A stretch of DNA of 52,711 nucleotides from Deltaproteobacteria bacterium (GCA_016218805.1 JACRCW010000143.1:1-52711); one strand, 5' to 3'; positions 4,939 to 39,752 are shown, counted from the first letter of the stretch. Program-made: numbers and translations. Notes: generated from the letters alone by a model not told the origin.

Positions 4939-4999
4939 ACCGTGTCCACCCGCGTGCGGGGGAGGCGGGCGTCGCCAGTCGGCGGGTGGGGGATGGTTG

Positions 5000-5067: not shown

Positions 5068-5074
5068 TGTTGCA

Positions 5075-6181: not shown

Positions 6182-6301
6182 CTGCCTTCCTGGGTGGTCC
6201 GGGGGGGGCCCCGGGGGGCGCGCCTTGTGGCCCACACGCGCGCCACTTTCAACTGTGCCGGGGTGTCGCCGCCGGGCGCGCTCCGGTATGAGACCGCGCC
6301 C

Positions 6302-14667: not shown

Positions 14668-17600
14668 TCAGGCGCCCGGGCCCTTGCCGCCGCCCGGCTG
14701 CAGGTAGGGGTTCACGGAGATCATCGTCGCGCCGCCTTCGGGCTCAGCCTCCGGGGTGGGGGGCGCCACGGCGGGGCGCGGGCCGGGGGTGGGCGTGGGT
14801 TCCGCGGGCAGGGCCACGCCCGCCTCCAGCAGGGCGCGGGTGAGGCGGTCCACGCGCCCCTGCAGCGCCTGCATCCGGCCCAGGGACTCGCGGCGGATGG
14901 CATCGCGCTCCACGCGCGCCTTCTGGGCTTCCGCGCGCAGCGCCTCCACCTCGCGCCCCGCCTGCGAGGCTTGGGTTGCCTGCTGGGCGGAGGCTGCCGC
15001 GCGGGTCTCCGCGTCCTTGTACTTCTCCTCAAACTGCCGGAGCTTCTGCAGCGCCTGCTGGCGCAGTTTCTCCTTGTCGTCCTGGGCCTGGCGGGCAGCG
15101 GCCTCCGCCCGCCCGCGCGCGGCGTCCAACTCGGCCACGCGTTTCTTGAGCTCATCGCGCTCATTGGCGGCCTGCTGGGTGACGGTCTCCAGGCGGCCCT
15201 GCACCTCAGCCACGTGGTCCTTGCCGGCGCGGTCCGCCTGCTCCACGGCTTTCTGCAGTTCCTGCGCACGCCGCTCCAGCTGCTGCGCCTTGGCCACCAG
15301 CTGGGTGCGCGCGCGCTCCAGTTCCTCGCGCTCACGGGTCCGCGCGCCCAGGTCCGCTTCCAGCTGGGCGGCCCGTTCACGCTCCGCGGCGTGCGCGGCC
15401 TCCAGCTGCGTGCGGGCCAGCGTCTCCTGTTCCAGGCGCGCTTGCGCGCGCTCCACCTCGTGCTGCTTGTCCTCAATCTTCTTGCGCGCCGTCTCCAGGG
15501 ACGCGGCGGTCTCCTTCTGCGCGGCCTCGGCGCGGGAGCGCTCCTCCAGGGACTTCTGCCGCAGGCCGCCCTCGGTGGAGCGCGCGGCCTTCTGCGCCTC
15601 CAGCTCGGCGCGCAGCTCATTGACGGACTCCTCCAGCTCCGTCTTCTGCAGGCTCATCACCTGGTGGGAATTCTCCAGCTGGGCCACCCGGCCGCGCGTC
15701 TCCACCAGCTGCCGGTTGAGCGCCGCCTCGCGCGCGGTGACGTCCTTGCGCTCGCGGACCTGCTCGTGGGTCGCATCCTCCAGCTGCTTGATGCGGTCCT
15801 TCAGCTGGGAGGCGGTCTGCGCGTTGTCGTCACGTTCCTTGCGTGCCTGCGCCAGTTCGTCGGCCACCCCGCGTGCGCGCTCCGCCTCCGCGCGTGCCTG
15901 GCGTTGTGCCTCGGCCACCGCGGCCTGCGCCTTCTCCCGCACCTGCTGTTCGCTGGCCTGCACCGCGCGCAGCTTGTCGGCGCGTTCGCCGGCCAGTGTC
16001 TCGGCCTGCTTGAGGGCCACCTGGAGTTCGCCCAGGCGGACCTGCAGTCCCTCGCGCTCCGTCTTGAGGGCCTGCATGGCCTGGCCCGCCTGACCCTGGA
16101 CGCGCTCACCGTCGGCCTGCAGGCGTTGCAGGTCCGCCGCCACGGCGGAGGCCTCGGCCAGCGCGCGCTGTGCCTCCTCCAGTTCGCGCTCGCGGCTGCG
16201 CGCGTGCTCGTCGCGCTCGCGCAGGCGCGCTTCCAGCGCCTTGAGGGCCTGGTCGCGCTGCGAAATCGCCTCGCCCAACCGCTGCATCTCCGCCTGCGTC
16301 TGGCTCAGGGCCCGGGTGTTCTCGCCCTGCCGGCCGGCCAACTCCGCCTCGGCCTGCTGGGCGCCGGCCAGCAGCGCCTTGAGGCGCGCCACCTCGGATG
16401 ACAACTCGCGCGCGGAGGCGCGCGCCTCGTCCAGCTCCGCCTGCAGGCGCGCCAGCGCATCCCGGGCCTGGTCGCGCTCTTCGGCGCGCGCGGCCACGGC
16501 CCGCCGCTCGCCCTCCAGTTCCTGCGCGGCGGACGCCAGGCGCGCCTGCAGCCGCTCCACCTCCGCGGCGCGCGTCTCCAGGTCCGCCTCCCGCGCGCGG
16601 ACGGCGGCGCGGGCGTCCTCCAGCTCCCGCCGCGCCGCGGCCACCTGCGCCTCGCGCGCGGCCAGGTCCACCTGCAGGACCTTCTCGCGCGCCTCCACCT
16701 CACCGCGCTCCCGCTCCACGTCACGGACCTGCGCCTCCAGCGCCTGCAGGCCCGCGTCCCGCTGCGCCACCTCCTGCCGCAGGCGCGCGGCCCCGGCCCG
16801 CTCCTCCTCAATGCGCGCCTGCAGGCCGCGCTCCCGGTCAGCCTGCGTGCGCACATCCTCGTCGGCCTTCAGCAGGGACTGTTCCAGCCCCTCAATGGCG
16901 GCCTGCTTGTCGGCCAGCTGCCCCTTGAGCCCGGCCATCTCCTCGTTGAGGTGGACAATGTCCGCCTGCAGCCCGCGGAGGTCCCGCTCCTTTTGTTGGA
17001 TGGCGGCGTGCGCCTCATTGAGGCGCCCGCGCTGGGCCTGGAACGCCTCGTCACCGCGGGTGACCTGCTGGTGCAGCAGCTGCCGCCCCTGTTCCAGCTC
17101 CTCAATCTCCCCCACCTTGCGCTGGACGGAGGCCTCCAGGTTCTTGAGCTCCAGCGCGCGCGCACGCAGTGCCTCCTGCTGCGCGTTGATCTCCTCCTGG
17201 AGGCGCTCCACCTCCTCGGTGCGGGCGCGAACCTCCGCCCGCAGCGCGGTGAGCTGCCCATCGCGCTGCACCAGCGTGTGCTCGCGGTCCTCCAGGCGGA
17301 TGTTCAACGCACGCAGCTGCGCCTGCTCCGCCCCCAGCGCGCTGTCCAGCGCGGCGTGCGCCTCCGCGGCCTCATCCAGTTTCTGCCCCAGCTCGCGCAG
17401 CGAAAGGTCCCGCGCCTCAATCTGCTTCTCCAGGCCGGCGCGGCGCTCGTTGGCCAGCGCCAGCTTGTTGGACTCGTCGGCCAGCCGGCGCTCCAACTCG
17501 CCCAGGCGCGCCTCGCGCTCGCGCATGGCGGTCTCTGCCGCCTCCTGCATGCGGCGGGTCTCGCCCTCCTGGTTGGACTGGACGTCCTTGGCCTCCTCCA

Positions 17601-19524
17601 GCCGCAGCTCGCGGCCGTGCAGCTCGTCCTGCAGGCGTTCCACGTCCGCGGTCAGCCCGTGGATGCGGTCCTCCAGGGCGGCGGTGTCCCGCAGGCGCAC
17701 GTGGTTCACTGCGCCGGTGGCGGCGCGCGCTGCCACCACGTCTTCCTCCAGCTCGCGGACCAGTTGCTCCGCCGCCAGCGTCTCGCGGTCCAGCAGCGCC
17801 TGCAGTGCCTGCCGTTCCTCGCTCTCGCGCCGGTGCAGGACGGTGAGCCGGGCAATCTCGTCGTCGCGCTCGGCGATGGCGCGGACCAGCCACGCCTCCA
17901 CGCGGCGCATGCGGTCGTGCCAGGCCGCCCGGGCGTTGTCCGCGCAGTGCAGGGCCTGCTCGGCGGCCAGCATGTCGTCGTGGAAGTCGCGCTCACGCTG
18001 GCGCAGCGTGCGCTCCAGCTGGCGGGTGCGCGCGGACAGGTCATGGATGCGCGCGTACAGCACGCCGCGGGTCAGCGTGACGGCGTGGAACAGTTCCCGG
18101 CTGTCGGCGGTCTCCTCATCGCGCGAGCGCAGCAGCACCGCCACGCGCGTCTCAGCGCGGGCCAGCGCGGTGCGCGCCTGGTGCAGGGCACCGCGCGTGT
18201 CATCCAGGCGCTGGTAGAGGTCCCCCAGGATGCCGGCGCCGTGCGCCACGGTGCGTTGCAGGCGTGCGTCCAGCTCGCGGTACGCGCCCTCCCACTCGTA
18301 GATGCGGGCGACGAGTTGCTGCTTCATCGTCTCCGCGGCGGCTTCCAGCTCGCGGCGCTCGCGGCGCAGCGCAAACACCTCCTTCTCCTTGGCCGCCACA
18401 ACCTCAATGAGGTCCTTCTCCATCATCACGCGCTCGGTGAGCATGCCCTCCACCGACGCGCCAAGCTCCTTCTCCTTGTCCGCCAGCGCCGCCTGCAGCC
18501 GCTGCACCTCACGGGTCAGCTCGTTCATTTGGACTATGTAGCTCTCAACCTCGCTCTCCTTCTGCGCGACGCGCGACTCCGCGCCCTGGATTTCCGCCTC
18601 CTTGGCGCGCCACAGGCGGGCCAGCCGCTGCAAGTCCCGCTCGCGTTCACGCAGCTTGTCCCGGAGGAACTGCGTGCGGGAGTCCGCGGCCTCCTGGGAC
18701 CCGCGCGCCCCCGTCCCCAAGGCGTCCGTGGCCACGTCCGCAAACCCGCCCGCGCCCAGCGAGCCGAACAACCGCTCCACACACGCGAGCTCAGTGGGAT
18801 CCACCGCGGGGCCGCCGCGGCCCGCGGAGGGCGCGCCCGGACGGGGCAGGCCCGGGTCCACGCCGGGCGGCGCCGGCAGGCCCGCCGTGACCGCCGCGGC
18901 CGGCGCCTCCAGGGCGTCCAGTCCGCCGGCCAGCTCATCCGCGGAGGGCATCTCCATCCCGGGGTCCGTGACCTCCGGCAGCGGGGGCAGCGGCGGCAGG
19001 TCCGCGGTGGGGTCCCGCTCCGGGATGGCCACGTCCGCCATGGCGCTCTGCACCCACGGGCCGCCCGGAGACACGCTGCGCCGCAGCCGCGGCGGCTCCA
19101 TGGGCCCGCCGCCCGCGGCCTCCACCAGCGCGCGGTGGCTCTGGGCGCGCTCCGCCAGGCTGCGGATGGCCGTCTCCAGGTCCGCACGTGAGGCGGGCAG
19201 CATCAGGTAGTGGTCCGCGCGTGCAGGTGACCCGCGGTGCCGCTCCACGGCGTCACGCGTGGCGTCAGAAGTGGTCAGCAGGATGGGCAGCGCCTTGTGC
19301 TGCGCGTTCTTGCGCAACCGCCCCACCAGCGCAAAACCCGTCGCCCCGCTGCGCTCGTGCCGCAGCATCACAATGTCCGGCCGGATGCGGTCCACCTCCT
19401 CGGTGGGGTCGGACCCCGCAAACACCACGACGTCCAGCTCCAGCCCGTCGATCTCGCGCAACGCCGCTTCCTGCGAGCGGGCCGTGCCGCTGTCCGGTTC
19501 GGCGAGGAGGACGGTGAGCGCCAT
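14668..19524 (-). CDS. AglZ/FrzS-like protein: N-terminal pseudo-receiver domain + ~1450-aa Glu/Arg/Ala-rich coiled coil
   Basis: MALTVLLAEPDSG...RPDIVMLRHERSG...LPILLTTSD has a receiver fold, but the phospho-acceptor Asp position is Arg (DIVMLR) and the acidic pair is EPD. The remainder is a continuous heptad-like ER/QA-rich coiled coil. The C-terminus is a Pro-rich tail ...PEPEGGATMISVNPYLQPGGGKGPGA. Confidence 0.75.
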   Translation of the reverse strand: MALTVLLAEPDSGTARSQEAALREIDGLELDVVVFAGSDPTEEVDRIRPDIVMLRHERSGATGFALVGRLRKNAQHKALPILLTTSDATRDAVERHRGSPARADHYLMLPASRADLETAIRSLAERAQSHRALVEAAGGGPMEPPRLRRSVSPGGPWVQSAMADVAIPERDPTADLPPLPPLPEVTDPGMEMPSADELAGGLDALEAPAAAVTAGLPAPPGVDPGLPRPGAPSAGRGGPAVDPTELACVERLFGSLGAGGFADVATDALGTGARGSQEAADSRTQFLRDKLRERERDLQRLARLWRAKEAEIQGAESRVAQKESEVESYIVQMNELTREVQRLQAALADKEKELGASVEGMLTERVMMEKDLIEVVAAKEKEVFALRRERRELEAAAETMKQQLVARIYEWEGAYRELDARLQRTVAHGAGILGDLYQRLDDTRGALHQARTALARAETRVAVLLRSRDEETADSRELFHAVTLTRGVLYARIHDLSARTRQLERTLRQRERDFHDDMLAAEQALHCADNARAAWHDRMRRVEAWLVRAIAERDDEIARLTVLHRRESEERQALQALLDRETLAAEQLVRELEEDVVAARAATGAVNHVRLRDTAALEDRIHGLTADVERLQDELHGRELRLEEAKDVQSNQEGETRRMQEAAETAMREREARLGELERRLADESNKLALANERRAGLEKQIEARDLSLRELGQKLDEAAEAHAALDSALGAEQAQLRALNIRLEDREHTLVQRDGQLTALRAEVRARTEEVERLQEEINAQQEALRARALELKNLEASVQRKVGEIEELEQGRQLLHQQVTRGDEAFQAQRGRLNEAHAAIQQKERDLRGLQADIVHLNEEMAGLKGQLADKQAAIEGLEQSLLKADEDVRTQADRERGLQARIEEERAGAARLRQEVAQRDAGLQALEAQVRDVERERGEVEAREKVLQVDLAAREAQVAAARRELEDARAAVRAREADLETRAAEVERLQARLASAAQELEGERRAVAARAEERDQARDALARLQAELDEARASARELSSEVARLKALLAGAQQAEAELAGRQGENTRALSQTQAEMQRLGEAISQRDQALKALEARLRERDEHARSRERELEEAQRALAEASAVAADLQRLQADGERVQGQAGQAMQALKTEREGLQVRLGELQVALKQAETLAGERADKLRAVQASEQQVREKAQAAVAEAQRQARAEAERARGVADELAQARKERDDNAQTASQLKDRIKQLEDATHEQVRERKDVTAREAALNRQLVETRGRVAQLENSHQVMSLQKTELEESVNELRAELEAQKAARSTEGGLRQKSLEERSRAEAAQKETAASLETARKKIEDKQHEVERAQARLEQETLARTQLEAAHAAERERAAQLEADLGARTREREELERARTQLVAKAQQLERRAQELQKAVEQADRAGKDHVAEVQGRLETVTQQAANERDELKKRVAELDAARGRAEAAARQAQDDKEKLRQQALQKLRQFEEKYKDAETRAAASAQQATQASQAGREVEALRAEAQKARVERDAIRRESLGRMQALQGRVDRLTRALLEAGVALPAEPTPTPGPRPAVAPPTPEAEPEGGATMISVNPYLQPGGGKGPGA

Positions 19525-20304: not shown

Positions 20305-23300
20305 TCACCACGTGACCAGCCCCGCTGCTCGCCTGAGGATCACAACAACGTCTCCGGTATCAATGACGCCGTCGGAGGCAGGGGTTCCGCCGACCAGCGG
20401 GGCCACGTCGCCTCTCGCAAGATCCGTCGGCGATGCCACATCCAGTCCCGACGCGATGCGCAGGGCCTTGAGGCCATCCGCGTTGTCAACCCTGCCGTCT
20501 CCGTTGAGGTCGCCGTCGGGCACGGCGACAAGCTCGTCAGCCAGGCAGTCCGCCGTCGTTCCGCCGTTGAGGCCCGTGCAGGTCCAGGTCCATGGGCCGG
20601 CGCCACTGACGGTGGAGGCAACACCAGTCGCGCATAGGTCGCTGGCGGGCGCTTCGGTGTGCAGCGCGCTGCTTGCGGTACCGCACGCTCCATCCACCGC
20701 GTCGGCGGAAAAGTTGGCCGTGATCGTGTGGCTGGAGACCACATTGTCCAGGATCAGCGGGTTCAGGACAGTTGCGACAAACCCGTTGGTCCCAGTCCAG
20801 TTCAGGAAGTGGTAGCCCGAGTTCGCGGTAGCGGTCACCTGGGTCGTGCTGCCACCGTGGTTCACGGTCTGGCTGGTCGCTCCCGTGATCGTGCCGTTGC
20901 CGTCGCTCAGGAACGTCACGCCATAGGTCTGGATGTTGGCCGAGCAGTTCGCCGTGCTCCCGCCGTATTGCCCCGCGCAGGTCCAGCTCCAAGGGCCCGA
21001 TCCGGCAACGGCCGACGATACGCCGGAACTGCACAGACTCATCGGGGTCGTACCCGCGAGAGTCTGACCATGGTCAGCGCCGCACGCTCCGTTCACGCTG
21101 TCGTGCGCAAAGTTCGCCGTGATCACCATGGCCGCGGTCACGTTGGTCACCACCAGCGGGTTCGCCAACGTCGTCACAAAGCCGCTTGTCCCGGTCCACT
21201 CAACGAAGTGATAACCCGCTGCAGCCAGCGCTTCGATTTCAGCGGCATCGCCGCCATGATTCACGGTCTGGCTGGTTTCGCCCGCGATCGTGCCGTTGCC
21301 GTCGCTCAGGAACGTCACGCCATAGGTCTGGATGCTGGCCGAGCAGTTCGCCGTGCTCCCGCCGTATTGCCCCGCGCAGGTCCAGCTCCAAGGGCCCGAG
21401 CCGGCAACGGCTGACGAAACACCGGAACTGCACAGACTCGTCGGCGTCGTACCCGCAAGAGTCTGACCATGGTCAGCGCCGCACGCTCCGTTCACGTTGT
21501 CATGCGCAAAGCTCGCGGTGATCACCATGGCCGCGGTCACGCCGGTCACGACCAGAGGGTTCGCCAACGTCGTCACAAAGCCGTTTGTCCCGGTCCACTC
21601 AACAAAGTGATATCCCGCTGCGGCCCATGCTTGGACCTCAGAGGCATCGCCGCCATGATTCACGGTCTGGCTGGTCGTCCCCGTGATCGTGCCGTTGCCA
21701 TCGCTCTGGAACGTCACGGCATAGGTCTGGATGGCGGCCGAGCAGTCCGCCGTGGCCCCGCCGTACTGACCCTCGCAGGTCCAGGTCCAAGGACCCAAGC
21801 CGGCCGCAGCCGAGGCAATGCCGGCGCTGCACAGGTTCGTCGGCGAGGTGGTGCCGAGCGTCTGACCATGGTCAGCGCCGCACGCTCCGTCCACTCTGTC
21901 GTGGACGAAGTTCGCGGTGATCTCCATGGCTGCCGTCACGTTGGTCACCACGAGCGGGTTGGCCACCGTGGTCACAAAGCCGTTTGTCCCGGTCCAATCA
22001 ACGAAATGAAAACCCGCCGCAGCCACCGCGCCGACCTCCGAGGCGTCGCCGCCATGCACCACGGTCTGGCTGGTCACGCCGGTGACGGTGCCGTTGCCAC
22101 CGCTCTGGAAGGTCAGGGCATAACTCCGGATGTCGGCCAGGCAGGACGCCGTGCTCCCGCCGTACTGACCCGCGCACGTCCAACTCCAAGGGCCTGAGCC
22201 CGCCACAGCCGAGGCCGTGCCGGCGCCGCACAGGTCCACGGGCGTAGCGGTCAGGGCCGCGCCGTCATCTGCGCCACACTGGCCGTTCACAACGGCGACA
22301 AAGCTCGCCGTCACCTCACCGTCCGCGGTCACGGGCCCGGTCGAGCACGTATAGGTTCTTCCTGACAGGGTCCCGGTGCACCCGGTGACCACGTCCACGC
22401 CGTAGCCGTCGTCGGCCGTAATGGTGAAGGAGGCGGTCTGGTTGTTGGCCACGGCCTGCACTGTGCTGGGGCTGATGCTGCCGCCGCTTCCCGCCGAGGG
22501 CGTCACGTACCAAAGCAGCGTCATCGCTCCCGACGCGACCCAGTTGGAGCTCGCGCCACTCAAGGCGAAGTTGTTGAGTGTCCCATCCTGGGCGCTGGGT
22601 GAGGTCTGCCCCTTGAGCGTGGTTCGGGCCGCGTTGTCCCCGCCTGCAACACCTTCGTCGAACCGGTAGTACGCGACGAGACCGCTCTCGTCGTATGCGA
22701 CCGTGGTGAAGGCTGACGCGAGAATCTCCGCCTGGCTGCGCGCCGTGCTCCAGATACGCACCTCGTCGATGGCCCCCGCGAAGAACCGGTTGTTGAAGTC
22801 GGAGCCGATCATCACCGGATCGGTGTTCGCGGCTGGGACGAAGGACGTGCCCGTGAGCGCGTGCTCCAGGCCGTTCACGTAGACATGCCGGGCTGCGCCG
22901 TCATACACGGCGGCCACGTGCTGCCACCTGCCAGGATGCAGAATCCCCCCGGCGGTCTCCATGCCGTCGAAGTTGATGCCGTCGTAGTTGCCGCTTGCGC
23001 CAAGCCGGAGTGTGTACCCGTTGGCGGACGGTGAGTGGTACTTGGACACAATACCGGCCAGCCACATGAATGCGGCGGGTTTGATCCACGCCTCCACCGT
23101 GTAGCTCGTGGACAGGTCGAGCGCCGTGGCGTCGGGAATACTCACGTGGTCGTTCGTCCCGTCAAAATCCAGGGCGTTTCCCGGGGGCGTCACAAGGTCG
23201 GACAGCTCGGGCCAGGTCAGCTCAACCGCGCCGATATCGCAGGCGCCGTTCTGCGGTCGGACGATTCCTCGCTGGTCATTGTTGAGGCAACTGCCCGCAT

Positions 23301-24846
23301 TGATGGCGGGGCTCCCGGCGAGCAGGGAGCGCGTGAGCGTGAGGCCCCCGTTGTCCTGCAGCGGCCCGAGCAGCGGGGCCTGGCCGTAGACGTCATGGGT
23401 GGTGGTCCCCGTAATCGTGCAATCAGCCGTGTTCCCGATGAGATTGTAGTCGTTCGAGACCAGCGTCCCGCGGCAGTCAGGCCCGCCGCCGGTGGCGGTG
23501 TTGTCGGCGAGAATCGTGTTCTGCGCGCTCGTGCCGACCAGGGTTCCCCTGATGCCGCCGCCCACCTCAGCAGAATTGCCGCTGATCGTGGAGTCGACGA
23601 CGCTGAAAACGTCGTAGCTGAATACGCCGCCTCCGTTGACCGCCGCGGTGTTGCCGCTGATGGTCGAGGCGCTGACCTCGATCTTCCCCAGGTTGGTGAA
23701 GATGCCGCCGCCGCCGCGAGCCGAGTTGCCGCTGATCGTACATTTGATGAGCGCCACGTCGCGCGGCTCCTTCATTTCTCCCCACACGTACAGGCCCCCG
23801 CCCGTCCCCGATGCGGTATTGCCGCTGAGGGTGAGGCTGTCCGCAGCCAGGTAACCCGTGTTGTGGTAGATGCCGGCGCCGTCGGTGGCTGAGTTGTTGC
23901 TGACCGTGCCGCCCACAATGAGCCAACCGTTGACGTTGGTGATGCCTCCGCCCACTTGAGTTGCGGTGTTACCCGTGATGGTCCCGAAGGTCATGGTGGC
24001 GAACGCGCCATAGACCGTATTGGCCATGTAGATGCCGCCGCCCTGCTGCGCGCGGTTGCCGCTGATGGTCGTGGCCGGATTGATGCTGAACGACCCGGAG
24101 GACTTCAGGCCGCCGCCGTTGCCCGTGGCTTGGTTGCCGCTGATCTGGCTGCCGTTGAGCGTCATGCTGGCCGTGCTGGCAATGCCGGCGCCGTCAACCG
24201 CTGAATTGCCGGAGATGACCGAGTCAGTGACCACCGTGTTTGCTGAGACATCCAGACCACCGCCTTGGGCGGCGGAGTTGTTGCTGACAACGGACGTGGT
24301 CAGGGTGAGCGGCCCGGCGCTCAGGATGCCTCCGCCAAACCCCGTGGCGGTGTTTCCGGTGACCCGTGTGTTGACCAGCCGCAGGTTCCCGGTGGCGGTG
24401 TTGTAGATGCCGCCCCCGCCCGCATCCGCGGCGCTGTTCTGCACAACCACGTCCGTCAGGACGAGTGTCGCCCCAGTCAGAATGCCGCCGCCGGCGCTCG
24501 CGGCGCGGCCGTCCGCCACGGTGATGCCCGTAAGGCTTGCGGTGATGGCCTGCTCAAAGCCAAACACTATGGCGGCGTCGTTGCCGGAGACCGTGAGATT
24601 GGCTGACCCCGGCCCGGTGATGGTCAGATTCTTGTCCACGAGGATCCCGCCGCTCGTGAGGGTGATCGTGCCGGACACAGTGACCAGGACGGTGTCCCCC
24701 GCTGCCGCGTCGGCAACGGCCTGACGCAGGGACCCCGGTCCGGAGTCACCCGTGGTGGTCACCGTGTGCGTCGCGGCGTGAGCCGTGCCGCCGCAAACAC
24801 CGCTGCCGATGGTCAGCAGCGCGAGCGTCGAGAGTCCCCTTGTCAT
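20305..24846 (-). CDS. Giant secreted protein: right-handed beta-helix repeats + LamG/ConA-like domain + 5x tandem ~133-aa Cys-linker/Listeria-Bacteroides-type repeats + C-terminal dockerin-like Ca-binding module
   Basis: GAGGAAAG RBS and a signal peptide MTRGLSTLALLTIGSGVCGGTAHA. The beta-helix region repeats units like GGGI.N....L.N..V.GN.A. LamG: LDFDGTNDHVSIPD...YTVEAWIKP...WQHVAAVYDG...DEVRIWS. Repeat unit: ...CGADHGQTL...GPWTWTC.GQYGG.TA.C...IQTY.VTF.SDGNGTI.G.TSQTV.HGGDA.E..A.AA.GYHFV.WTG. The C-terminus DGDLNGDGRVDNADGL is dockerin-like. The start was trimmed to M39 of the table ORF. Confidence 0.8.
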   Translation of the reverse strand: MTRGLSTLALLTIGSGVCGGTAHAATHTVTTTGDSGPGSLRQAVADAAAGDTVLVTVSGTITLTSGGILVDKNLTITGPGSANLTVSGNDAAIVFGFEQAITASLTGITVADGRAASAGGGILTGATLVLTDVVVQNSAADAGGGGIYNTATGNLRLVNTRVTGNTATGFGGGILSAGPLTLTTSVVSNNSAAQGGGLDVSANTVVTDSVISGNSAVDGAGIASTASMTLNGSQISGNQATGNGGGLKSSGSFSINPATTISGNRAQQGGGIYMANTVYGAFATMTFGTITGNTATQVGGGITNVNGWLIVGGTVSNNSATDGAGIYHNTGYLAADSLTLSGNTASGTGGGLYVWGEMKEPRDVALIKCTISGNSARGGGGIFTNLGKIEVSASTISGNTAAVNGGGVFSYDVFSVVDSTISGNSAEVGGGIRGTLVGTSAQNTILADNTATGGGPDCRGTLVSNDYNLIGNTADCTITGTTTHDVYGQAPLLGPLQDNGGLTLTRSLLAGSPAINAGSCLNNDQRGIVRPQNGACDIGAVELTWPELSDLVTPPGNALDFDGTNDHVSIPDATALDLSTSYTVEAWIKPAAFMWLAGIVSKYHSPSANGYTLRLGASGNYDGINFDGMETAGGILHPGRWQHVAAVYDGAARHVYVNGLEHALTGTSFVPAANTDPVMIGSDFNNRFFAGAIDEVRIWSTARSQAEILASAFTTVAYDESGLVAYYRFDEGVAGGDNAARTTLKGQTSPSAQDGTLNNFALSGASSNWVASGAMTLLWYVTPSAGSGGSISPSTVQAVANNQTASFTITADDGYGVDVVTGCTGTLSGRTYTCSTGPVTADGEVTASFVAVVNGQCGADDGAALTATPVDLCGAGTASAVAGSGPWSWTCAGQYGGSTASCLADIRSYALTFQSGGNGTVTGVTSQTVVHGGDASEVGAVAAAGFHFVDWTGTNGFVTTVANPLVVTNVTAAMEITANFVHDRVDGACGADHGQTLGTTSPTNLCSAGIASAAAGLGPWTWTCEGQYGGATADCSAAIQTYAVTFQSDGNGTITGTTSQTVNHGGDASEVQAWAAAGYHFVEWTGTNGFVTTLANPLVVTGVTAAMVITASFAHDNVNGACGADHGQTLAGTTPTSLCSSGVSSAVAGSGPWSWTCAGQYGGSTANCSASIQTYGVTFLSDGNGTIAGETSQTVNHGGDAAEIEALAAAGYHFVEWTGTSGFVTTLANPLVVTNVTAAMVITANFAHDSVNGACGADHGQTLAGTTPMSLCSSGVSSAVAGSGPWSWTCAGQYGGSTANCSANIQTYGVTFLSDGNGTITGATSQTVNHGGSTTQVTATANSGYHFLNWTGTNGFVATVLNPLILDNVVSSHTITANFSADAVDGACGTASSALHTEAPASDLCATGVASTVSGAGPWTWTCTGLNGGTTADCLADELVAVPDGDLNGDGRVDNADGLKALRIASGLDVASPTDLARGDVAPLVGGTPASDGVIDTGDVVVILRRAAGLVTW
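20640..22440. repeat. About 4.5 tandem copies of a 399-bp unit (133 codons) inside the giant adhesin gene, highly similar at DNA level
   Basis: Near-identical segments recur with exact 399-nt spacing, e.g. gtctgaccatggtcagcgccgcacgctccgttcac at 21062 and 21461. The antisense ORFs start at 21034, 21433, 21832 and 22231, a constant +399 step. Outer copies are more diverged; the boundaries are approximate. Confidence 0.75.
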
Positions 24847-25170
24847 GGTTCTTTCCTCGTCATCAGAGCTTCCTGCGCAAACCGCGGGCAATCCTCGGTG
24901 GACACGCGCCGCTTTGCGGCGCAGGAGAGGATTGATGCGGGGGGAGTTGGCCTCTAACAACTCCAGCGTCGATCTTCAACAAACGCCTGCACTTGCCAAG
25001 CGCGGGTTGCTGGCGGCGCAAGGCGCCCCGAACCCACAGGGCGAGGATGGACGCTGGCGGCGCGCGGACACCCGGCGTCAGGGTCCGTTCCCGCGCCTGG
25101 CCGTGCCTGGCGGGGACGGGGGCGCCAAGCACATGACGCGCGCCGCGCGCCCACGGTAGGGTCCGCCGCC

Positions 25171-26556
25171 ATGGAGATGCTGGGACCTTACGCGCTCATT
25201 GACCCGCTGGGGTCCGGCAGCCTGTGCGACGTGTGGCGCGCGGTGCGGCCGGAGGAAGCGCGGCGGGCCCGCTGGCTGGCGGTCAAGCGTCCCAAGCCGG
25301 CCGTGGCGGCCGAACGCGCGTTCGTGGACACCTGGCTGACGCTGGCGCGCACCGCCATGGTCATCCAGCACCCGTTTGTGGTCCCCATCCTGGATGCGGG
25401 CGAGTTCCAGGCGCCGCAAGGCGGCCCGCCGCAGCCCGTGGTGGTGACCGAGGCCGTCACCGGCGCAGCGCTCAACGCGCTGCTCAATCACCTGATGACC
25501 AAGACGCGGGACATCCCGCGCGCGTTTGCGCTGGAGGTGGTGCACCGCGTGCTGGAGGGCCTGGTCCACGTCCACGCCGCCACGGACCCCACCACGGGCG
25601 CGCCGCTGGTCCACGGGGACGTGTGCCCCGCCAATGTGATGGTCTCCATGGACGGCCGCGTGCGCCTGTGTGACCCGGTGCTGGGCCGCGCACGGACCGC
25701 GCTCAGCCGGTTGGAGAACCAGGCGCTGCGCTTCCGCTGGCACTACATGGCGCCCGAAGAGGCCCGCGGCGCCACCCCGGACGCGCGCGCGGACCTGTAC
25801 GCGGTGGGCGTCATGCTGCATGAGATGCTCACCCAGCGGCGCATGCGCCGTGCCAACCGGCCTGAGGAGTTCCAGCAGCTGGTGGCCGCCGGCACCTGGA
25901 CGCCGCTGCAGCAGCTCAACATCCCCACGGACAACGGTCTGGACACGCTGCTGTTCCGCGCGCTGGCCCCGGACCCGGCGGCCCGCTACCCCACCGCGGC
26001 GGCGTTCCTGGCGGACGCGGAGGCGCACATGCGCGCGTTTGGCGTGGAGGTGCCGGCCGCGGCCACCGCGTCCGTCATGGCGCAGGCTTTCCCGCAGGTC
26101 CTACCGGCGGAGGAGACCGCCCGGGCGTTGGCGCGCTCGCTGGCGCCCGCCCCCACCGCTCCCGCCGAAGACGCGCCGGGGGAAGCGGCCCCCGCCGGCC
26201 GGCCGCGCCCAGCGGGGAGACGCAAACCGCCGTCGGATACTGGCAAGAAGCTCCTGATGGCTGTGGGCGGCCTGGCGCTGATGGGGGCGCTGGGCGCCGG
26301 CGTCATCTGGCTGGTGGGACGCCGGCCGGAGACCGCGGCGCGCCCCGCCGCGCCGGTGGAAGCCCCGCGCGACCTGACGCACCTGGTGGGCGGGCGCACG
26401 CAGCAGCACTGGACGGAGCGCCTGGCGGAGATGGACAAGGCGCTGGAAACCGCGCGCCGCGAGGAGCCGGGCCGGGTGCCGGCCATGGAGGCGCTCCGCG
26501 CGGACCTGGTCCGCAAGGGGCAGGCGCTGGGCCTCAAAGGCTACGGCGGGGAGTGA
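25171..26556 (+). CDS. Ser/Thr kinase-like protein with degenerate catalytic motifs (possible pseudokinase), one TM segment
   Basis: Kinase fold: LGSGSLCDVWRA (G-loop), WLAVKRP (Lys), YMAPEE. The catalytic loop is VHGDVCPANVMV (HRD->HGD, Lys->Cys), and DFG is replaced by LCDPV. A TM segment (LLMAVGGLALMGALGAGVIWLV) precedes a C-terminal tail. Confidence 0.8.
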   Translation: MEMLGPYALIDPLGSGSLCDVWRAVRPEEARRARWLAVKRPKPAVAAERAFVDTWLTLARTAMVIQHPFVVPILDAGEFQAPQGGPPQPVVVTEAVTGAALNALLNHLMTKTRDIPRAFALEVVHRVLEGLVHVHAATDPTTGAPLVHGDVCPANVMVSMDGRVRLCDPVLGRARTALSRLENQALRFRWHYMAPEEARGATPDARADLYAVGVMLHEMLTQRRMRRANRPEEFQQLVAAGTWTPLQQLNIPTDNGLDTLLFRALAPDPAARYPTAAAFLADAEAHMRAFGVEVPAAATASVMAQAFPQVLPAEETARALARSLAPAPTAPAEDAPGEAAPAGRPRPAGRRKPPSDTGKKLLMAVGGLALMGALGAGVIWLVGRRPETAARPAAPVEAPRDLTHLVGGRTQQHWTERLAEMDKALETARREEPGRVPAMEALRADLVRKGQALGLKGYGGE

Positions 26557-26559
26557 CGG

Positions 26560-26790
26560 ATGCTGTGGTGGATCGTCGGCGGGATGTTTGCGGGGTTGGG
26601 GGCGGTGATGATGGGCCGCGGGTGGAACTACTTCCTCCACCCCGAGGGCCCGCGCGCACTCAAGCGGCGCGCACGCAACGTGGAGCTGGGCTTCCCCACG
26701 GACATGCGCGTGTTTGGCCGCAAGGTGCGCCGCATGGGCACCATCCTGGTGATCACGGGGGGCGTATTGATCAGCGTGCCGTGGTGGTGA
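26560..26790 (+). CDS. Small membrane protein (2 predicted TM helices), translationally adjacent to the kinase-like gene
   Basis: MLWWIVGGMFAGLGAVMMG...GTILVITGGVLISVPWW. The ATG is 3 nt after the kinase stop, with GGGGAG upstream. The 3' end overlaps the convergent GGDEF gene by 20 nt. Confidence 0.45.
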   Translation: MLWWIVGGMFAGLGAVMMGRGWNYFLHPEGPRALKRRARNVELGFPTDMRVFGRKVRRMGTILVITGGVLISVPWW

Positions 26791-27856
26791 GCGGCCGGTC
26801 CCGCCCCCACACGCGCACCTGGTCCCGCCCGGAGCGCTTGGCCAGGTAGACCATCTGGTCCGCGCATTCGATGAGTTGCTGCTTGTTGATGGCATCATCC
26901 GGGAACGCCGCCACGCCGACGCTGATGGTCACCCGCCCGCCCGGCTGCACGTTCCCGCCCGGGAACGGAAAGCTGGCCACCGCCTCCCGCAGGCGCTCCG
27001 CACGCACAATCGTCCCGTCCTTGGGCGTCTGCGGCAGCACAATGACAAACTCCTCGCCGCCGTAGCGCGCGGGGATGTCCCCCATGCGCCCGCGGAAGCT
27101 GATCTCAGGAATCTCACCGGTGTTGCACAGGATGCGCGCCAGGTCCTTGAGCAGCTTGTCCCCGGCGGGGTGCCCCAGCATGTCGTTGTAGTTCTTGAAG
27201 TGATCCACGTCGAGAAACACCAGGCCAACCGGCGTGTGGTAGCGCGCGCCGCGCGCCAGCTCCTGCGTCAGGGCCTCCTGGAAGAAGCGGTGGTTGTACA
27301 ACCCGGTGAGCCCGTCCCGCAGGGCCAGCTGCTCCAGCTCCGCATTGGCTGCCCGCAGCTCACGCGTGCGCTCCTCCACCTGCCGCTCCAGCCGCCGCTC
27401 CTGCTCCTGCACCGCGGACAGCGCCCGGGCCAGCATGTCGTTCTTCTCGCGCAGCTCCACCACCAGCCGCGCGTTCTCCTCCTCCAGCAGGTTGGCCCGC
27501 ACCGCCTCCGCCACCAGCGCGCGCAGGTCCATCACCCGCAATGGCTTGGAAATGAACCGGTGCACGTGCGCCAGGTTGACCGCGTCGCGCAGGTCCTCCA
27601 CCCGTTCACTGGCGGTGACCAGGATGCGCACCGCCTTGGGCTGCACGTCCCGCGTGGCCGTCAGCAGATTGACGCCCGTGATGCCGGGCATCATGTGGTC
27701 CGCCACCACGCAGTCCACCGGCTGGGTCCGCAACACCTCCAGCGCCGCGGCCCCGTCCGCCGCCGTCATGACCTCATAGTCCTTCTGCAGCGCCGCCTGG
27801 ATCAGGTTGCGAATGTCGGCGTCGTCGTCAACCACCAGCACCCGGAGCTGCCGCAT
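26771..27856 (-). CDS. Response regulator with receiver domain + GGDEF diguanylate cyclase domain
   Basis: MRQLRVLVVDDDADIRNL...DCVVADHMMPGITG (phospho-acceptor Asp present), a coiled-coil linker, then LTGLYNHRFF...RYGGEEF (an intact GGEEF) and KRSGRDQV. The start was trimmed to M30 of the table ORF. Confidence 0.85.
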   Translation of the reverse strand: MRQLRVLVVDDDADIRNLIQAALQKDYEVMTAADGAAALEVLRTQPVDCVVADHMMPGITGVNLLTATRDVQPKAVRILVTASERVEDLRDAVNLAHVHRFISKPLRVMDLRALVAEAVRANLLEEENARLVVELREKNDMLARALSAVQEQERRLERQVEERTRELRAANAELEQLALRDGLTGLYNHRFFQEALTQELARGARYHTPVGLVFLDVDHFKNYNDMLGHPAGDKLLKDLARILCNTGEIPEISFRGRMGDIPARYGGEEFVIVLPQTPKDGTIVRAERLREAVASFPFPGGNVQPGGRVTISVGVAAFPDDAINKQQLIECADQMVYLAKRSGRDQVRVWGRDRPLTTTAR

Positions 27857-28007
27857 GCACCCCACCGTCGTCACGCGGCGGGAGACGCGCTCCCGTGCCG
27901 CCGGCCCTTGCTGCCCCGCATGCCGCGCCAAGTCAACCGCCACCGCCTGCTTCCACCCGGGCCCACGGCCGCGCTAGCTTGCCCGCGCCAGTCACCCTGG
28001 AGCCTCC

Positions 28008-28331
28008 GTGGCGGACACCCTTCCCGGCCTTGCGCTGTCGTTTGTGTCCGGCCGCTTCCGCGGCGGCGAATTCCCCCTCCCGGACGACCGCGAGGTCCTG
28101 GTGGGGCGCGAGGAATCCAACGACATCCAGCTCAACGAGACCGGCGTCAGCCGCGTCCATGCCAAGCTCATCATGGAACAGGGCCGCCTGGAGCTGCGCG
28201 ACCTCAACAGCACCAACGGCACGTTTGTGAACGGCCAGCGCGCCACGCGGGCGTCCCTGAAGGAGGGGGACCGCGTGCTCATTGGCCAGTCCATCATGCT
28301 CGTCACCCGTGACCGTGGCTGGGCCACGTGA
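28008..28331 (+). CDS. Stand-alone FHA-domain protein
   Basis: 107 aa, reading ...EVLVGREESNDIQLNETGVSRVHAKLIMEQGRLELRDLNSTNGTFVNGQR...LKEGDRVLIGQSIM. This is the phosphothreonine-binding FHA signature (G-R...S-R-x-H...N-G-T-x-V-N). GTG start. Confidence 0.8.
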   Translation: MADTLPGLALSFVSGRFRGGEFPLPDDREVLVGREESNDIQLNETGVSRVHAKLIMEQGRLELRDLNSTNGTFVNGQRATRASLKEGDRVLIGQSIMLVTRDRGWAT

Positions 28332-28384: not shown

Positions 28385-28457
<73 letters not shown>

Positions 28458-28499
28458 CATTGAAACCCCGCCAACCGGCGGGGTTTTTTCTTGCCCCCC

Positions 28500-31249: not shown

Positions 31250-32665
31250 TCAGCCCATCAACGCGCGCGCCGCCGCCAGCGCCGTCTCCACAAACGGTGC
31301 GGGATACAGGCCCACGCCCACGACGCCCACGCACGCCACCGTCACGGCTGCCTTCATGGACAGCGCCATCGGCACGCGGCCTTCGGTGCCGGCCACGGGA
31401 CGCTCCATGTAGATGCTGCGCGCGACGCGCATGTAATAGAAAACGCTGACCACCGCGAGCACCGCGCCGAGCACGACGATCCACACGTAGCCCGCGCGGT
31501 ACGCCGCCACGAACACGCCCACCTTGGCCCAGAAACCCGCCACAAACGGGATGCCGCCGAGCGACAGCAGGAACAGCAACATCGCCATGGCGAGGCCCGG
31601 GTTGCGGCGCGACAGTCCCTTGAACGCGTCCAGGTGGTCGCTGCCGGACGCATCCTCAATCACGGAAGCCACCGCGAACGCGCCCATGTTCGTGAACAGG
31701 TACGCCACCAGGTAAAACAGAAGCATCCCCAGCCCGTCAGGCGTGACCAACCCTATGCCCAGCAGCATGGTCCCCATCTGGCCAATGCCACTGTACGCCA
31801 GCAGCCGCTTCACGCTGGTCTGCGGAATGGCCAGCACGTTCCCCACCACCATGGTGATCACGCACATGACAATCACCGCCGGCGCCCACGTTGCCTTCTG
31901 GCCCGGCAGCGCCTCAATGAAGATGCGGATCAGCGCGGCAAAGCCCGCCGCCTTGGGCGCCACCGAGAGGAACGCGACAAACGGCGTGGGCGCGCCTTCA
32001 TACGTATCCGGCACCCACATGTGGAACGGGACGACGCCAATCTTGAACCCCAACCCCGCCAGCGTGATGACCAGGCCCGGAACCACCATGGGGTTGCCCG
32101 CCTTGGCCGCCGCGGTGACGCCGGACAGCATGGTGGTGCCCGCCGCGGCGAACAGCAGCGACAGGCCGTACAGCGTCACCACCGACGACACCGCGCCCAC
32201 CAGGTAGAGCTTGAGGGCCGCCTCGGCGGACCGCTCGGACTTGCGCATGGCGGCCAGCACGTACAGCGGCATGCTCATCAGTTCAAAACTGACGACGATG
32301 AAGATGAGTTCGCGCGCGCTGGCCAGCAGCGTCATCCCCAGCAGGCTGGAGAGCACCAGCAAGTGGTACTCGCCCTGGCGGCGGGGGAAGAACCGGTCCG
32401 CGTGGTCCATCCCAATGAGCACGCCCAGCGCACCCGCGGCCAGGAACACGCGCTTGAGGTACAGCGCCACCGCGTCGTTCACAAACGCGCCACCAAACGC
32501 GGTGCCCTGCACGTCCAGCACAAAGCTCGCCGCGAGCGTGATGAGCGCGCCTGCGCACGCCACCACCGCAATGCCGCGCTTGTCCTCCGCGGGCAGCAGC
32601 AGGTCCACCACAAACACCAGCAGCAGGATGCAGGCGAGGAGGATGTCGAGCGCAAGCGGCATCAT
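31250..32665 (-). CDS. nuoN: NADH-quinone oxidoreductase subunit N
   Basis: 471 aa, polytopic antiporter-like subunit (…FELMSMPLYVL…, …GFKIGVVPFHMWVPDTYEGAPTP…). GAGGTGA RBS. It is the last gene of the nuo operon. Confidence 0.9.
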   Translation of the reverse strand: MMPLALDILLACILLLVFVVDLLLPAEDKRGIAVVACAGALITLAASFVLDVQGTAFGGAFVNDAVALYLKRVFLAAGALGVLIGMDHADRFFPRRQGEYHLLVLSSLLGMTLLASARELIFIVVSFELMSMPLYVLAAMRKSERSAEAALKLYLVGAVSSVVTLYGLSLLFAAAGTTMLSGVTAAAKAGNPMVVPGLVITLAGLGFKIGVVPFHMWVPDTYEGAPTPFVAFLSVAPKAAGFAALIRIFIEALPGQKATWAPAVIVMCVITMVVGNVLAIPQTSVKRLLAYSGIGQMGTMLLGIGLVTPDGLGMLLFYLVAYLFTNMGAFAVASVIEDASGSDHLDAFKGLSRRNPGLAMAMLLFLLSLGGIPFVAGFWAKVGVFVAAYRAGYVWIVVLGAVLAVVSVFYYMRVARSIYMERPVAGTEGRVPMALSMKAAVTVACVGVVGVGLYPAPFVETALAAARALMG

Positions 32666-32674
32666 GGCATCACC

Positions 32675-34234
32675 TCACGGCACCAGCGCGGGCCCAGCGG
32701 CCGCGACCGAAGTTCCGACGACACGGGACAGGTACTCCACGGTGGCCTTGTCCACACCGGTCAGCGCCAGGTTGGGCCAGAAGCCAAACAGGACCAGGCA
32801 GACCGCCAACATGCTGATGGCCACCCACTCGGTCCCGCGCGCGTCCTCCAGGTGTTCAAAGCGCCCTTCCGGGAACGGGCCCCAGAAGATCTGCCGCGTG
32901 GCCTTGAGCACGTAGATGGCCGTGATGAACGCGCCAAGGATGCCCGGCAGCATCCACCACCCGTGCGCGCTCTTGTACGCGCCCAGGAACACCAGGAACT
33001 CCGCCACAAACCCCGCCGTTCCCGGCAGCCCCAATGACGACAGGCACCCCAGCGTGAACACCACGGAGATGCCGGGCATGAACTTCGCGAACCCGCCCAT
33101 GGAAGCGACGTCGCGCGTGTGGCTCTTCTCGTAGATGAGGCCCACCAGGGCAAAGAACGCGCCCGTCATGATGCCGTGGGCAAACATCTGGAACACCGCG
33201 CCGTTCCACCCGCTCACCGTGAGCGTGGCGGCGCCCAGCATCACCACGCCCATGTGTGACACCGACGAGTACGCAATGATGTACTTGAGGTCCTTCTGGC
33301 TCATGGCGCTGAACGCGCCGTACACCACGTTGATGGACGCCACGATGCCGACGACCAGCGCCCAGGCCTGCGCGCCCTCCGGCAGCATCACCATGCCCAC
33401 ACGGATCACGCCAAACGCGCCCAGCTTCATCAGCACGCCGGCGTGCAGCATGGAGACCGCGGTGGGCGCGGCCGCGTGACCGTCGGGGGACCAGGTGTGG
33501 AACGGGAACAGGCCGGCCAGCGTGCCAAAGCCCACCCACAGCGCGGGGAACACCCACAGCTGCGTGTCGCGTGACATCACCATGTTGCCGCGCAGCAACT
33601 CCATGTTGAACGTCTTGCCACCGCCCGCCATGTACAGCGCCAGGATGCCCACAAGGATGAACGCGGAGCCCATCAGCAGCATCAGGGTCAGCTTCATGGC
33701 GGCGTATTCGCGCCCGCCGATGTCCAGGCGCTTGAGGAACGGCGCCAGCGGGCCCTGGATCTCCACCTTCTTGGTGGAACCCCAGATGCCAATGAGCAGG
33801 TACATCGGCAGCACGGCAATCTCGTAGAACAGGAAGAACACAAACATGTCCAGGCTGACAAACACGCCGAACACGCCCGCGGACAGCACCAGCAGCAGCA
33901 CGTAGAAGTCGCGGTCACGGTCCTTCACCGTCCAGGACGCCCAGCAGCCCGCAAACAGGATGATGCCAGTCAGCAGCAGCAGTGACAGCGACCACCCGTC
34001 GACAGCGACCGCGTAGGAAATCCCAAGCGACGGCACCAGCGGCACAACCTTCTGCATCTGCAGGCCGCCGCGCGCCAGGTCATACTGCAGGATGGTGGCA
34101 ATGGCGCCGGCCAGCGAGACACCCGCACCGGTGATGGCCACCAGGCGGGTGGCGGCGCGCGCGCGGTCCGGCAGCGCGATGATCACCATCGCGGCGATGA
34201 ACGGGGCAAGGACGATCAGCGTCAGCAGGTGCAT
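32675..34234 (-). CDS. nuoM: NADH-quinone oxidoreductase subunit M
   Basis: 519 aa, reading ...FFLFYEIAVLPMYLLIGIWGS...FPFHTWSPDGHAAAPTAVSMLHAGVLMKLG... (NuoM/ND4 family). Confidence 0.9.
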   Translation of the reverse strand: MHLLTLIVLAPFIAAMVIIALPDRARAATRLVAITGAGVSLAGAIATILQYDLARGGLQMQKVVPLVPSLGISYAVAVDGWSLSLLLLTGIILFAGCWASWTVKDRDRDFYVLLLVLSAGVFGVFVSLDMFVFFLFYEIAVLPMYLLIGIWGSTKKVEIQGPLAPFLKRLDIGGREYAAMKLTLMLLMGSAFILVGILALYMAGGGKTFNMELLRGNMVMSRDTQLWVFPALWVGFGTLAGLFPFHTWSPDGHAAAPTAVSMLHAGVLMKLGAFGVIRVGMVMLPEGAQAWALVVGIVASINVVYGAFSAMSQKDLKYIIAYSSVSHMGVVMLGAATLTVSGWNGAVFQMFAHGIMTGAFFALVGLIYEKSHTRDVASMGGFAKFMPGISVVFTLGCLSSLGLPGTAGFVAEFLVFLGAYKSAHGWWMLPGILGAFITAIYVLKATRQIFWGPFPEGRFEHLEDARGTEWVAISMLAVCLVLFGFWPNLALTGVDKATVEYLSRVVGTSVAAAGPALVP

Positions 34235-34235
34235 G

Positions 34236-36062
<1,827 letters not shown>

Positions 36063-36073
36063 TTGTCTCCTCC

Positions 36074-39750: not shown

Positions 39751-39752
39751 GG

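Follow-up and report, generated by a model that had tools for sequence, protein, structure and literature searches.

A degenerate PknB-fold membrane protein with a micro-protein partner and a diguanylate cyclase paired with an FHA protein: two probably independent gene modules in a deltaproteobacterial contig

Four genes are crowded into 3.2 kb of a 52,711-bp contig from a Deltaproteobacteria bacterium (GCA_016218805.1, JACRCW010000143.1). The contig as a whole, roughly 70% GC and with relatives labelled Myxococcota, is here called the window. The four genes encode a membrane protein with a serine/threonine kinase fold, a micro-protein of 76 residues, a response regulator with a GGDEF diguanylate cyclase domain, and a stand-alone FHA protein. 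A first-pass annotation, made from the sequence by itself, had read them as one relay from Ser/Thr kinase and FHA protein to cyclic di-GMP (c-di-GMP). The explanation favored here, with a probability of about 0.55, is that the region comprises two conserved modules of two genes each, which are independent and happen to be neighbors. Module A (25171-26790) would be a single operon for the membrane-anchored PknB-fold protein and its coupled micro-protein with two transmembrane (TM) helices. Module B (26771-28331) would pair an orphan cyclase, built of a receiver (REC) domain, a coiled coil and GGDEF, with a divergently transcribed, bare FHA protein. A functional link between the two modules is optional at best. 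The ORF (open reading frame) list, Pfam, ARAGORN and Rfam place all four genes, and the tRNA-Phe beside them, where the first-pass annotation had put them (Table 1).

Module A is defined by the constancy of its gene pair. In all eight kinase-like loci with genomic context (the window, L001, L002, L004, L005, L006, L007 and L016), the kinase-like gene has an orthologue of the micro-protein gene 2-57 nucleotides (nt) downstream in the same orientation; at L007 the ORF is present though uncalled in the source annotation. Across these loci the micro-protein is 57-75% identical, versus 38-51% for the kinase-like protein. Its ATG in the window lies 3 nt past the kinase-like stop codon, with a Shine-Dalgarno sequence (GGGGAG) 7 nt upstream. 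The GC content at third codon positions (GC3) is 0.93 for the micro-protein gene and 0.90-0.93 for all four ORFs, the same range as in the contig's other real genes. The 76-residue ORF, kept at every locus, is a real gene and the true partner of the kinase-like gene, to which it is predicted from this spacing to be translationally coupled.

Module B recurs as well. The same divergent cyclase/FHA pair is found in L001 and in L032-L036 (54-67% identity for the cyclase and 54-62% for the FHA protein), and is kept in three of four lineages. The exception is L019, where the cyclase orthologue lacks an FHA neighbor and is flanked by a canonical kinase and an M1-type peptidase. A metagenome scan with the cyclase pair returned mostly generic GGDEF proteins, L019 being the only orthologue.

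The joining of the two pairs is another matter. They abut in the window, and in L001 all four orthologues fall within 3 kb, with MoCF_biosynth and RNase_T genes between the pairs. L002 has these same two genes after its kinase-like/micro-protein pair, followed by a cyclic-nucleotide-binding (cNMP-binding) protein in place of the cyclase, while in L004, L006 and L007 the pair has unrelated neighbors. No cyclase or FHA orthologue was found near the kinase-like gene in L002, L004, L006 or L007. Conversely, neither the kinase-like gene (termed HGD after its catalytic-loop motif) nor the micro-protein gene was found near the cyclase in L019 or L032-L036; in the latter group an ABC transporter lies beyond the cyclase. 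The closest kinase-like relative (L005) and the closest cyclase and FHA relatives (L032) derive from the same metagenome and have compatible composition, and they are on different contigs with different neighbors. Pkinase genes are 3 of about 29 genes in the window, and at such density a neighboring kinase is weak evidence of a functional tie. Co-occurrence, by which the first-pass annotation had proposed to judge its four-gene relay, thus holds for each pair and not for the four together; the relay is not a conserved unit, as the pairs are near each other only in the window and L001.

By both profile and fold the first protein of Module A is of the Hanks type. It matches Pfam Pkinase (PF00069) with E=1.7e-18 (67.4 bits, cut-off 31.7), its AlphaFold2 model (pLDDT 89.6) has a PknB-like bilobal domain, and the best Foldseek matches in the PDB are PknB kinase domains (TM-score 0.80-0.87). 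To set the register of its motifs, a HMMER alignment to Mycobacterium tuberculosis PknB was combined with a MAFFT alignment in which PknB served as ruler. The first-pass annotation had reported a retained β3 Lys and APE motif, HRD changed to HGD, the catalytic-loop Lys changed to Cys, and DFG changed to DPV; the alignments confirm this register, and the catalytic motifs had not been misread. Lys39 lacks its customary αC Glu partner, with Leu58 at that position, and the HRDxKxxN loop keeps its Asp (Asp150) and Asn (Asn155) and has lost the Arg of the RD pair to Gly and its Lys to Cys. Asp168 of the DFG motif is kept ahead of Pro-Val, and the F-helix Asp and subdomain XI Arg are intact. The loss of the αC Glu and of the activation-loop Thr sites are two active-site changes beyond those first noted. 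No compensating acidic residue was found at or near the αC Glu position; an invariant Glu48 was considered as a stand-in, but it lies at the αC N-cap, ten residues before the canonical position, and is unlikely to serve.

Hydropathy and the AlphaFold2 model agree with the earlier call of one TM helix. Past this helix is a segment that is conserved in the family alignment, has no Pfam match, and is modelled as a short β stretch and a helical hairpin (residues about 400-452, with helices at 411-431 and 433-452 and pLDDT about 90-97). Charges on either side of the TM helix are distributed such that the hairpin must face the periplasm, and the protein is accordingly modelled as bitopic with a small periplasmic hairpin. 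The PASTA kinase family PknB/Stk1 (NF033483) was rejected as an assignment: the protein scores 135 bits (cut-off 450), lacks a PASTA domain, and has a helical hairpin of ~65 residues as its ectodomain.

About ten sequences are known from the tiny Myxococcota family of which the kinase-like protein is a member. In a word-indexed search no more than six relatives matched over their full length (38-49% identity), and below them the scores fell by half. When 1.84 billion representative proteins were searched exhaustively with a profile, about eight clusters matched along the whole length (440-749 bits); no later hit exceeded 349 bits, and the first hits in that range are confined to the kinase domain. 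Motifs were tabulated for ten family sequences and the six nearest outgroup kinases, again with PknB as ruler. All ten family members have HG[D/E], a replaced αC Glu (L/F/M/Q/A), and C, A or S where the catalytic loop should have Lys; Ser and Thr are mostly absent from the activation loop. Lys39 and the DFG Asp are invariant (10/10), and the catalytic Asp and Asn are each present in nine, with Glu for Asp (HGE) in P0002 and Ser for Asn in another member. Positions +1 and +2 of the DFG motif are relaxed: four members are canonical, and the others have DPV, DFQ, DLG, DFC (twice) and DCG. The outgroup kinases, by comparison, have the αC Glu and DFG in 6/6, HRD in 5/6 and an activation-loop Thr or Ser in 5/6, and they already have Ser at the catalytic-loop Lys position. 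Among the 231 closest kinase domains, HRDxSPxN is the commonest loop (111), HRDxKPxN is found in 72, and HGD is rare. A literature search on the HRDVSP motif, with Ser replacing the catalytic-loop Lys, found no papers. As a separate observation, many of the closest kinase relatives among P0209-P0350 carry two to six tandem kinase domains.

Because the outgroups and the HRDxSPxN clade already lack the Lys, its change to Cys is inherited from the larger clade and is no special lesion of this protein. Loss of the Arg, of the αC Glu and of the phospho-acceptors, together with loosening of DFG, is specific to the kinase-like family, and DPV is private to the member in the window. Judged from these alignments, active-site degeneracy is a lineage-wide trait and no one-off. 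Since the nucleotide and metal ligands are fixed while residues that position or activate them vary, the domain likely no longer depends on catalysis, and the protein is probably inactive or very weak in phosphotransfer. As for its naming, a current definition of pseudokinases demands that one or more of VAIK Lys, HRD Asp and DFG Asp be lost (preprint 10.1101/2025.01.12.632604), and all three are present here. The earlier reading of a degenerate active site holds, and holds family-wide; the label of candidate pseudokinase fails under the Lys/Asp/Asp rule, and with the triad intact, "dead" is best taken as a hypothesis.

The partner of the kinase-like protein has two hydrophobic helices flanking a 39-residue loop of net charge +8. 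Its AlphaFold2 model (pLDDT 93.4) consists of three helices, namely TM1, a cytoplasmic amphipathic helix and TM2, and the basic cytoplasmic loop is conserved as RGWNY..P.G..ALKR.ARN.ELGFPTDM..FGRKVRR. Pfam and NCBIfam gave no match at E up to 0.1, and a Foldseek search of the PDB with the model found only generic helical hairpins, such as ATP synthase c subunits (best E 1.6). Profile searching nevertheless gathers a family of at least 136 proteins, 75-127 residues long among those listed and none with a Pfam domain, which share the core RGW.Y..P.G..A.KRK..N...GF[PT]TDM..FGRKVRR. Wherever enough of the locus is available, the high-scoring subfamily (at least 125 bits) is encoded beside an HGD kinase. 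A larger subfamily with a Pro/Ala-rich tail has no kinase upstream and is found directly behind ftsJ/rlmE (L009, L010, L012, L018, L037 and L038) or behind def, the peptide deformylase gene (L011 and L017); in L037 and L038 the gene overlaps the ftsJ stop codon by 4 nt. The micro-protein family thus represents a conserved, unannotated component of Myxococcota membranes, usually translationally coupled to ftsJ/rlmE.

The products of Module B retain the residues expected of their domains. The cyclase matches Pfam Response_reg (E=3e-21) and GGDEF (E=6e-42, 143.5 bits), and scores 164 bits with TIGR00254. Its receiver residues Asp10, Asp11, Asp53, Thr81 and Lys104 are invariant in four orthologues, as is the series RMGD-IPARY-GGEEF with the I-site RxxD five residues upstream of GGEEF. 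In agreement with the first reading of a convergent response regulator with an intact GGEEF, it is predicted to be an orphan response-regulator diguanylate cyclase whose phospho-acceptor, active and product-inhibition sites are all intact. The PleD family (NF007135) does not accommodate it: the score of 191 bits is far under the cut-off of 474, other equivalog cut-offs are missed by a wide margin as well, and there is a single REC domain and not a REC-REC-GGDEF arrangement. Neither a histidine kinase nor a PP2C phosphatase is encoded in the window. The cyclase gene converges on that of the micro-protein, and their 3' ends overlap by 20 nt. The cyclase start is taken as the ATG at 27856 and not the upstream GTG because the orthologues are 361 residues long.

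The divergent 107-residue FHA protein matches the Pfam FHA profile with E=3e-21 (75.9 bits, cut-off 20.7). Its phosphothreonine (pThr)-binding residues Gly33-Arg34, Ser48-Arg49-x-His51 and Thr69-Asn70-Gly71 are conserved, with Gly-Arg34, Ser48-x-x-His51 and Asn70-Gly invariant in nine relatives. The gene has a GTG start with GGAG 5 nt upstream. A GarA/OdhI-type regulator was considered and set aside (49.6 bits against a cut-off of 200, N-terminal extension of ~10 residues); the absence of a conserved N-terminal Thr argues against self-inhibition of that type. Thr164 in the cyclase linker (ERTREL, with Leu at pT+3) was weighed as a site for the FHA domain and carries no specific weight, because ERT is a generic signature of signalling helices. 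An alignment of the cyclase-FHA intergenic region from three lineages showed no conserved motif. A literature search on FHA proteins, diguanylate cyclases and kinases yielded tangential reviews only, with no direct description of a link between Ser/Thr phosphorylation and c-di-GMP.

Canonical kinases are encoded near cyclase orthologues in L019 (6777-8636, minus strand, HRDVKPAN) and L032 (7108-8394, plus strand, HRDLKPEN), both with DFG. An M1-family peptidase recurs near these genes in L004, L019 and L032. This kinase/M1-peptidase recurrence may be remnant synteny.

On the two-module reading, the kinase-like domain of Module A would still bind nucleotide and metal, with little or no phosphotransfer, and would act as a nucleotide-dependent scaffold or switch. 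Its TM helix and periplasmic hairpin may pair in the membrane with the micro-protein, whose basic cytoplasmic loop is the probable site of contact or output. In Module B the FHA protein would dock on a pThr mark left by one of the many canonical Ser/Thr kinases of this organism, and such docking could couple Ser/Thr phosphorylation to c-di-GMP synthesis. The recurrent pair is in this respect a candidate meeting point of the two kinds of signalling.

Several points weigh against this reading. The structure models are of single chains, the kinase-like protein and the micro-protein, so that contact between the two is a matter of inference; likewise, no phospho-acceptor for the FHA domain was identified. 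The evidence base comprises about ten family members and eight contexts, several of them on short contigs. The intact Lys/Asp/Asp triad would also fit a non-RD kinase that is active and constitutively regulated. Finally, the modules are close together in two rather divergent lineages, those of the window and L001 (kinase-like identity ~41%). Such proximity is unlikely to arise by chance for unlinked genes in a multi-megabase genome, and it may reflect ancestral linkage or a facultative functional link between the modules.

An active but atypical kinase is the alternative that survives best, although it is judged unlikely. The protein would be a non-RD kinase that needs no activation-loop phosphorylation, with Thr47 of the micro-protein as its dedicated substrate and FHA reading optional. 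It retains Lys39, Asp150, Asn155, Asp168 and the Gly-rich loop, and its loss of the RD Arg goes with loss of the activation-loop Thr, a combination typical of non-RD kinases. Ser in the catalytic loop is commonest in the large neighboring clade, which is presumably functional, and kinases without the canonical Lys-Glu pair can work; protein O-mannose kinase (POMK) and the DYD family are discussed in this connection (PMC12599244). The sequence GFP[T/S]DM is moreover conserved in the micro-protein loop, where Thr47 is near-invariant (Ser in one member). That Thr, however, is just as well conserved in the ftsJ/def-linked subfamily, whose members lack a kinase partner, and a structural role is the probable reason for its conservation. 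The catalytic Asp and Asn substitutions in single members and the varied DFG Phe/Gly in 6/10 are not what selection for catalysis would be expected to leave, and nothing acidic takes the place of the αC Glu, with Leu58 there and Glu48 out at the N-cap.

An integrated four-gene relay, in which the dead kinase-like protein and its micro-protein form a scaffold that is phosphorylated in trans while the FHA protein reads the pThr and controls the cyclase, on the pattern of PknB, the MviN pseudokinase domain and FhaA in M. tuberculosis, is more doubtful. The adjacency of the genes in the window and their clustering in L001 speak for it, as do the presumably canonical kinases encoded in the window, which might phosphorylate it in trans, and the precedent of a pseudokinase domain that recruits an FHA protein (PMC12599244). 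It is because proximity in two divergent lineages exceeds chance for unlinked genes that the relay keeps some small share of the probability. Against it, the linkage is missing in L002, L004, L006, L007, L019 and L032-L036, and the four genes, being on opposite strands, are not co-transcribed. The pThr to which an FHA domain binds could not, in addition, come from a kinase that is itself dead. The family alignment has no invariant Ser or Thr in the cytoplasmic part of the kinase-like proteins, and hence no conserved FHA docking site. An FHA gene beside the kinase-like gene in L006, which might have been counted as linkage, is no orthologue (24% identity).

A bolder reading is likewise a long shot. 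It would have the HGD family as an undescribed membrane pseudokinase-like switch that kept nucleotide and metal binding, abandoned phosphotransfer, and recruited an obligate micro-protein partner from the ftsJ/def-linked housekeeping family to form a three-helix TM signalling unit. In some lineages, including that of the window, this unit would feed an FHA adaptor and in turn the orphan REC-GGDEF cyclase. If true, the HGD switch would connect envelope sensing with c-di-GMP and need no histidine kinase to do so. Least probable of all is that the genes have no specific relation, being a chance clustering of kinase, FHA and GGDEF genes abundant in Myxococcota with the micro-protein as operon passenger: three Pkinase genes in 52.7 kb, neighbors that differ widely among relatives, and micro-protein family members elsewhere behind unrelated housekeeping genes are in keeping with it, but it does not account for tightly spaced kinase-like/micro-protein linkage at 8/8 loci with kinase identities down to 38%, for a distinct micro-protein subfamily (at least 125 bits) tied to the kinase-like gene, or for a divergent cyclase/FHA pair that recurs in three lineages.

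Table 1. Features of the four-gene region, with motifs of the kinase-like protein aligned to PknB (aa, amino acid residues)
Feature	Position	Strand	Description
Kinase-like gene	25171-26556	+	461 aa; ORF list
Kinase-like domain	aa 1-290		complete PknB-type fold; AlphaFold2
Gly-rich loop			PknB GFGGMSEV; here GSGSLCDV
β3 motif	25285-25287 (Lys39)	+	PknB VAVK; here LAVK, Lys39 retained
αC Glu			PknB E59; here Leu58
Catalytic loop	25612-25635 (aa 148-155)	+	PknB HRDVKPAN; here HGDVCPAN
Metal-binding motif	25672-25680 (aa 168-170)	+	PknB DFG; here DPV
Activation-loop Thr171/Thr173			PknB Thr/Thr; here Glu/Gln
APE motif			PknB SPE; here APE, intact
Juxtamembrane extra helices	aa 296-324		AlphaFold2; disordered linker follows
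TM helix	26242-26319 (aa 358-383)	+	hydropathy, AlphaFold2
Conserved periplasmic segment	26368-26526	+	RDLxxLVGGRTxxFWxER...R(A/E)DxxRKxxALGL; family alignment
Micro-protein gene	26560-26790	+	76 aa; ORF list
REC-GGDEF ORF as first called	26771-27943	-	ORF list; start later revised
REC-GGDEF gene, revised	26771-27856	-	361 aa; REC, coiled-coil linker, GGDEF
GGEEF motif	27047-27061		in the cyclase
Cyclase-FHA divergent intergenic region	27857-28007	.	151 bp; promoters presumed
FHA gene	28008-28331	+	107 aa; stand-alone FHA domain
tRNA-Phe (GAA)	28385-28458	+	called by both ARAGORN and Rfam

The tRNA-Phe does flank the cluster, as first described, but its place beside the FHA gene is not kept in relatives; in L001 enolase is there, and in L032 a different gene. 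Directly after the tRNA, a GC hairpin with a perfect 7-bp stem (CCCCGCC-AACC-GGCGGGG) and a T6 run behind it (28466-28489, plus strand) look like an intrinsic terminator. A promoter and terminator scan of 24.8-28.7 kb gave no calls and is uninformative for such a GC-rich organism, because it overlooked this obvious hairpin and T-run. An Rfam scan of the window found no riboswitch and matched tRNAs alone. These include a third tRNA at 3532-3603 (plus strand; Rfam 53.2 bits, not reported by ARAGORN), between the genes for a presumably canonical kinase and a Band_7 protein.

Elsewhere in the window are two more Ser/Thr kinase genes, at 1213-3276 (plus strand) and 47949-49694 (minus strand), with Pkinase scores of 139 and 124 bits and a PEGA domain in the second, and a nuo operon at 31250-41065. 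A 1741-residue ORF at 4997-10222 (plus strand) joins a type IA topoisomerase (Toprim and Topoisom_bac, residues 439-1038, E=5e-103) to a RecQ-type helicase with DEAD, Helicase_C, RecQ_Zn_bind and HRDC domains; its ~438 N-terminal residues have no match, and it is predicted to be a single-chain TopoIII-like/RecQ fusion. At 20305-24960 (minus strand) is the gene for a secreted protein of 1551 residues with β-helix repeats of the Chlam_PMP type, LamG and four InlB B-repeat (Flg_new_2) units. The GC content of this gene is ~65%, versus ~72% in its flanks, and by comparison with L016 it looks to have been inserted between a gene for a protein of ~1600 residues (14668-19524) and the kinase-like gene.

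Among the known systems that come closest, the likeness is in every case functional or architectural only. The cyclase shares the REC-helical stalk-GGDEF architecture of WspR-type enzymes, with phospho-acceptor Asp, GGEEF and RxxD intact, but it differs in that no Wsp chemosensory genes or histidine kinase are nearby and in being paired with an FHA gene. Small membrane proteins are known to modulate sensor kinases, as MgrB does with PhoQ, and MacP is a substrate of StkP. The micro-protein resembles these as a very small membrane protein encoded with, or acting on, a membrane signalling kinase; it has no similarity to either in sequence or structure, and it is set apart by two TM helices, a structured basic loop and ftsJ/def-linked homologues.

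In the Esp system of Myxococcus xanthus, the FHA-containing hybrid histidine kinase EspA works with the Ser/Thr kinases PktA5 and PktB8 and the membrane protein EspB (PMC4320627). There, too, myxobacterial Ser/Thr kinases feed receiver-domain signalling via an FHA domain and a membrane partner. EspA, however, carries its FHA domain on the histidine kinase itself, and the system acts on turnover of MrpC and not on c-di-GMP. Membership in the EspA family was rejected for the FHA protein and the cyclase receiver, which score 49-56 bits against a cut-off of 1400.

In M. tuberculosis, PknB, the pseudokinase domain of MviN (MurJ) and FhaA provide an example of a kinase-like domain that serves as a phospho-dependent docking platform (PMC12599244). 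The resemblance is to a membrane protein with an intracellular kinase fold of doubtful or no activity, and with an FHA protein involved. The MviN domain is fused to a flippase, binds no ATP and has lost all of the Lys, HRD Asp and DFG Asp, whereas the protein in the window keeps these three residues, is predicted to be bitopic with a small periplasmic hairpin, and has no conserved phospho-acceptor. Linkage of the FHA gene to the kinase-like gene is, moreover, inconsistent.

The bacterial Ser/Thr kinase atlas describes seven pseudokinase families, ActPs1-3, GLW, CP1, DYD and DLHK (preprint 10.1101/2025.01.12.632604; PMC12599244). No family among the seven resembles the one found here, and none is reported to come from Myxococcota or to carry an HGD motif; the review (PMC12599244) does not mention Myxococcota, and in the preprint HGD is absent and the only Myxococcota families, Myxo1 and Myxo2, are outside the seven. 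The HGD family is comparable to them in being a conserved bacterial lineage of PknB fold with non-canonical catalytic motifs, and like DYD in particular in that the αC Glu is missing and ATP binding is still plausible. It is unlike them in that all seven have the VAIK Lys substituted in at least one third of members (preprint 10.1101/2025.01.12.632604), while the HGD family keeps the Lys and both Asp residues. It decays by another route, through the αC Glu, the RD Arg, the activation-loop sites and DFG positions +1 and +2, and the Lys/Asp/Asp rule of the current bacterial pseudokinase catalogue misses it because the triad is intact. What is added to the known systems is a small, previously undescribed family of degenerate kinases that has an obligate micro-protein as partner, a micro-protein family that is widespread and unannotated, and a recurrent cyclase-FHA pair; and of these the invariable micro-protein partner offers a concrete handle on what the kinase-like domain does.

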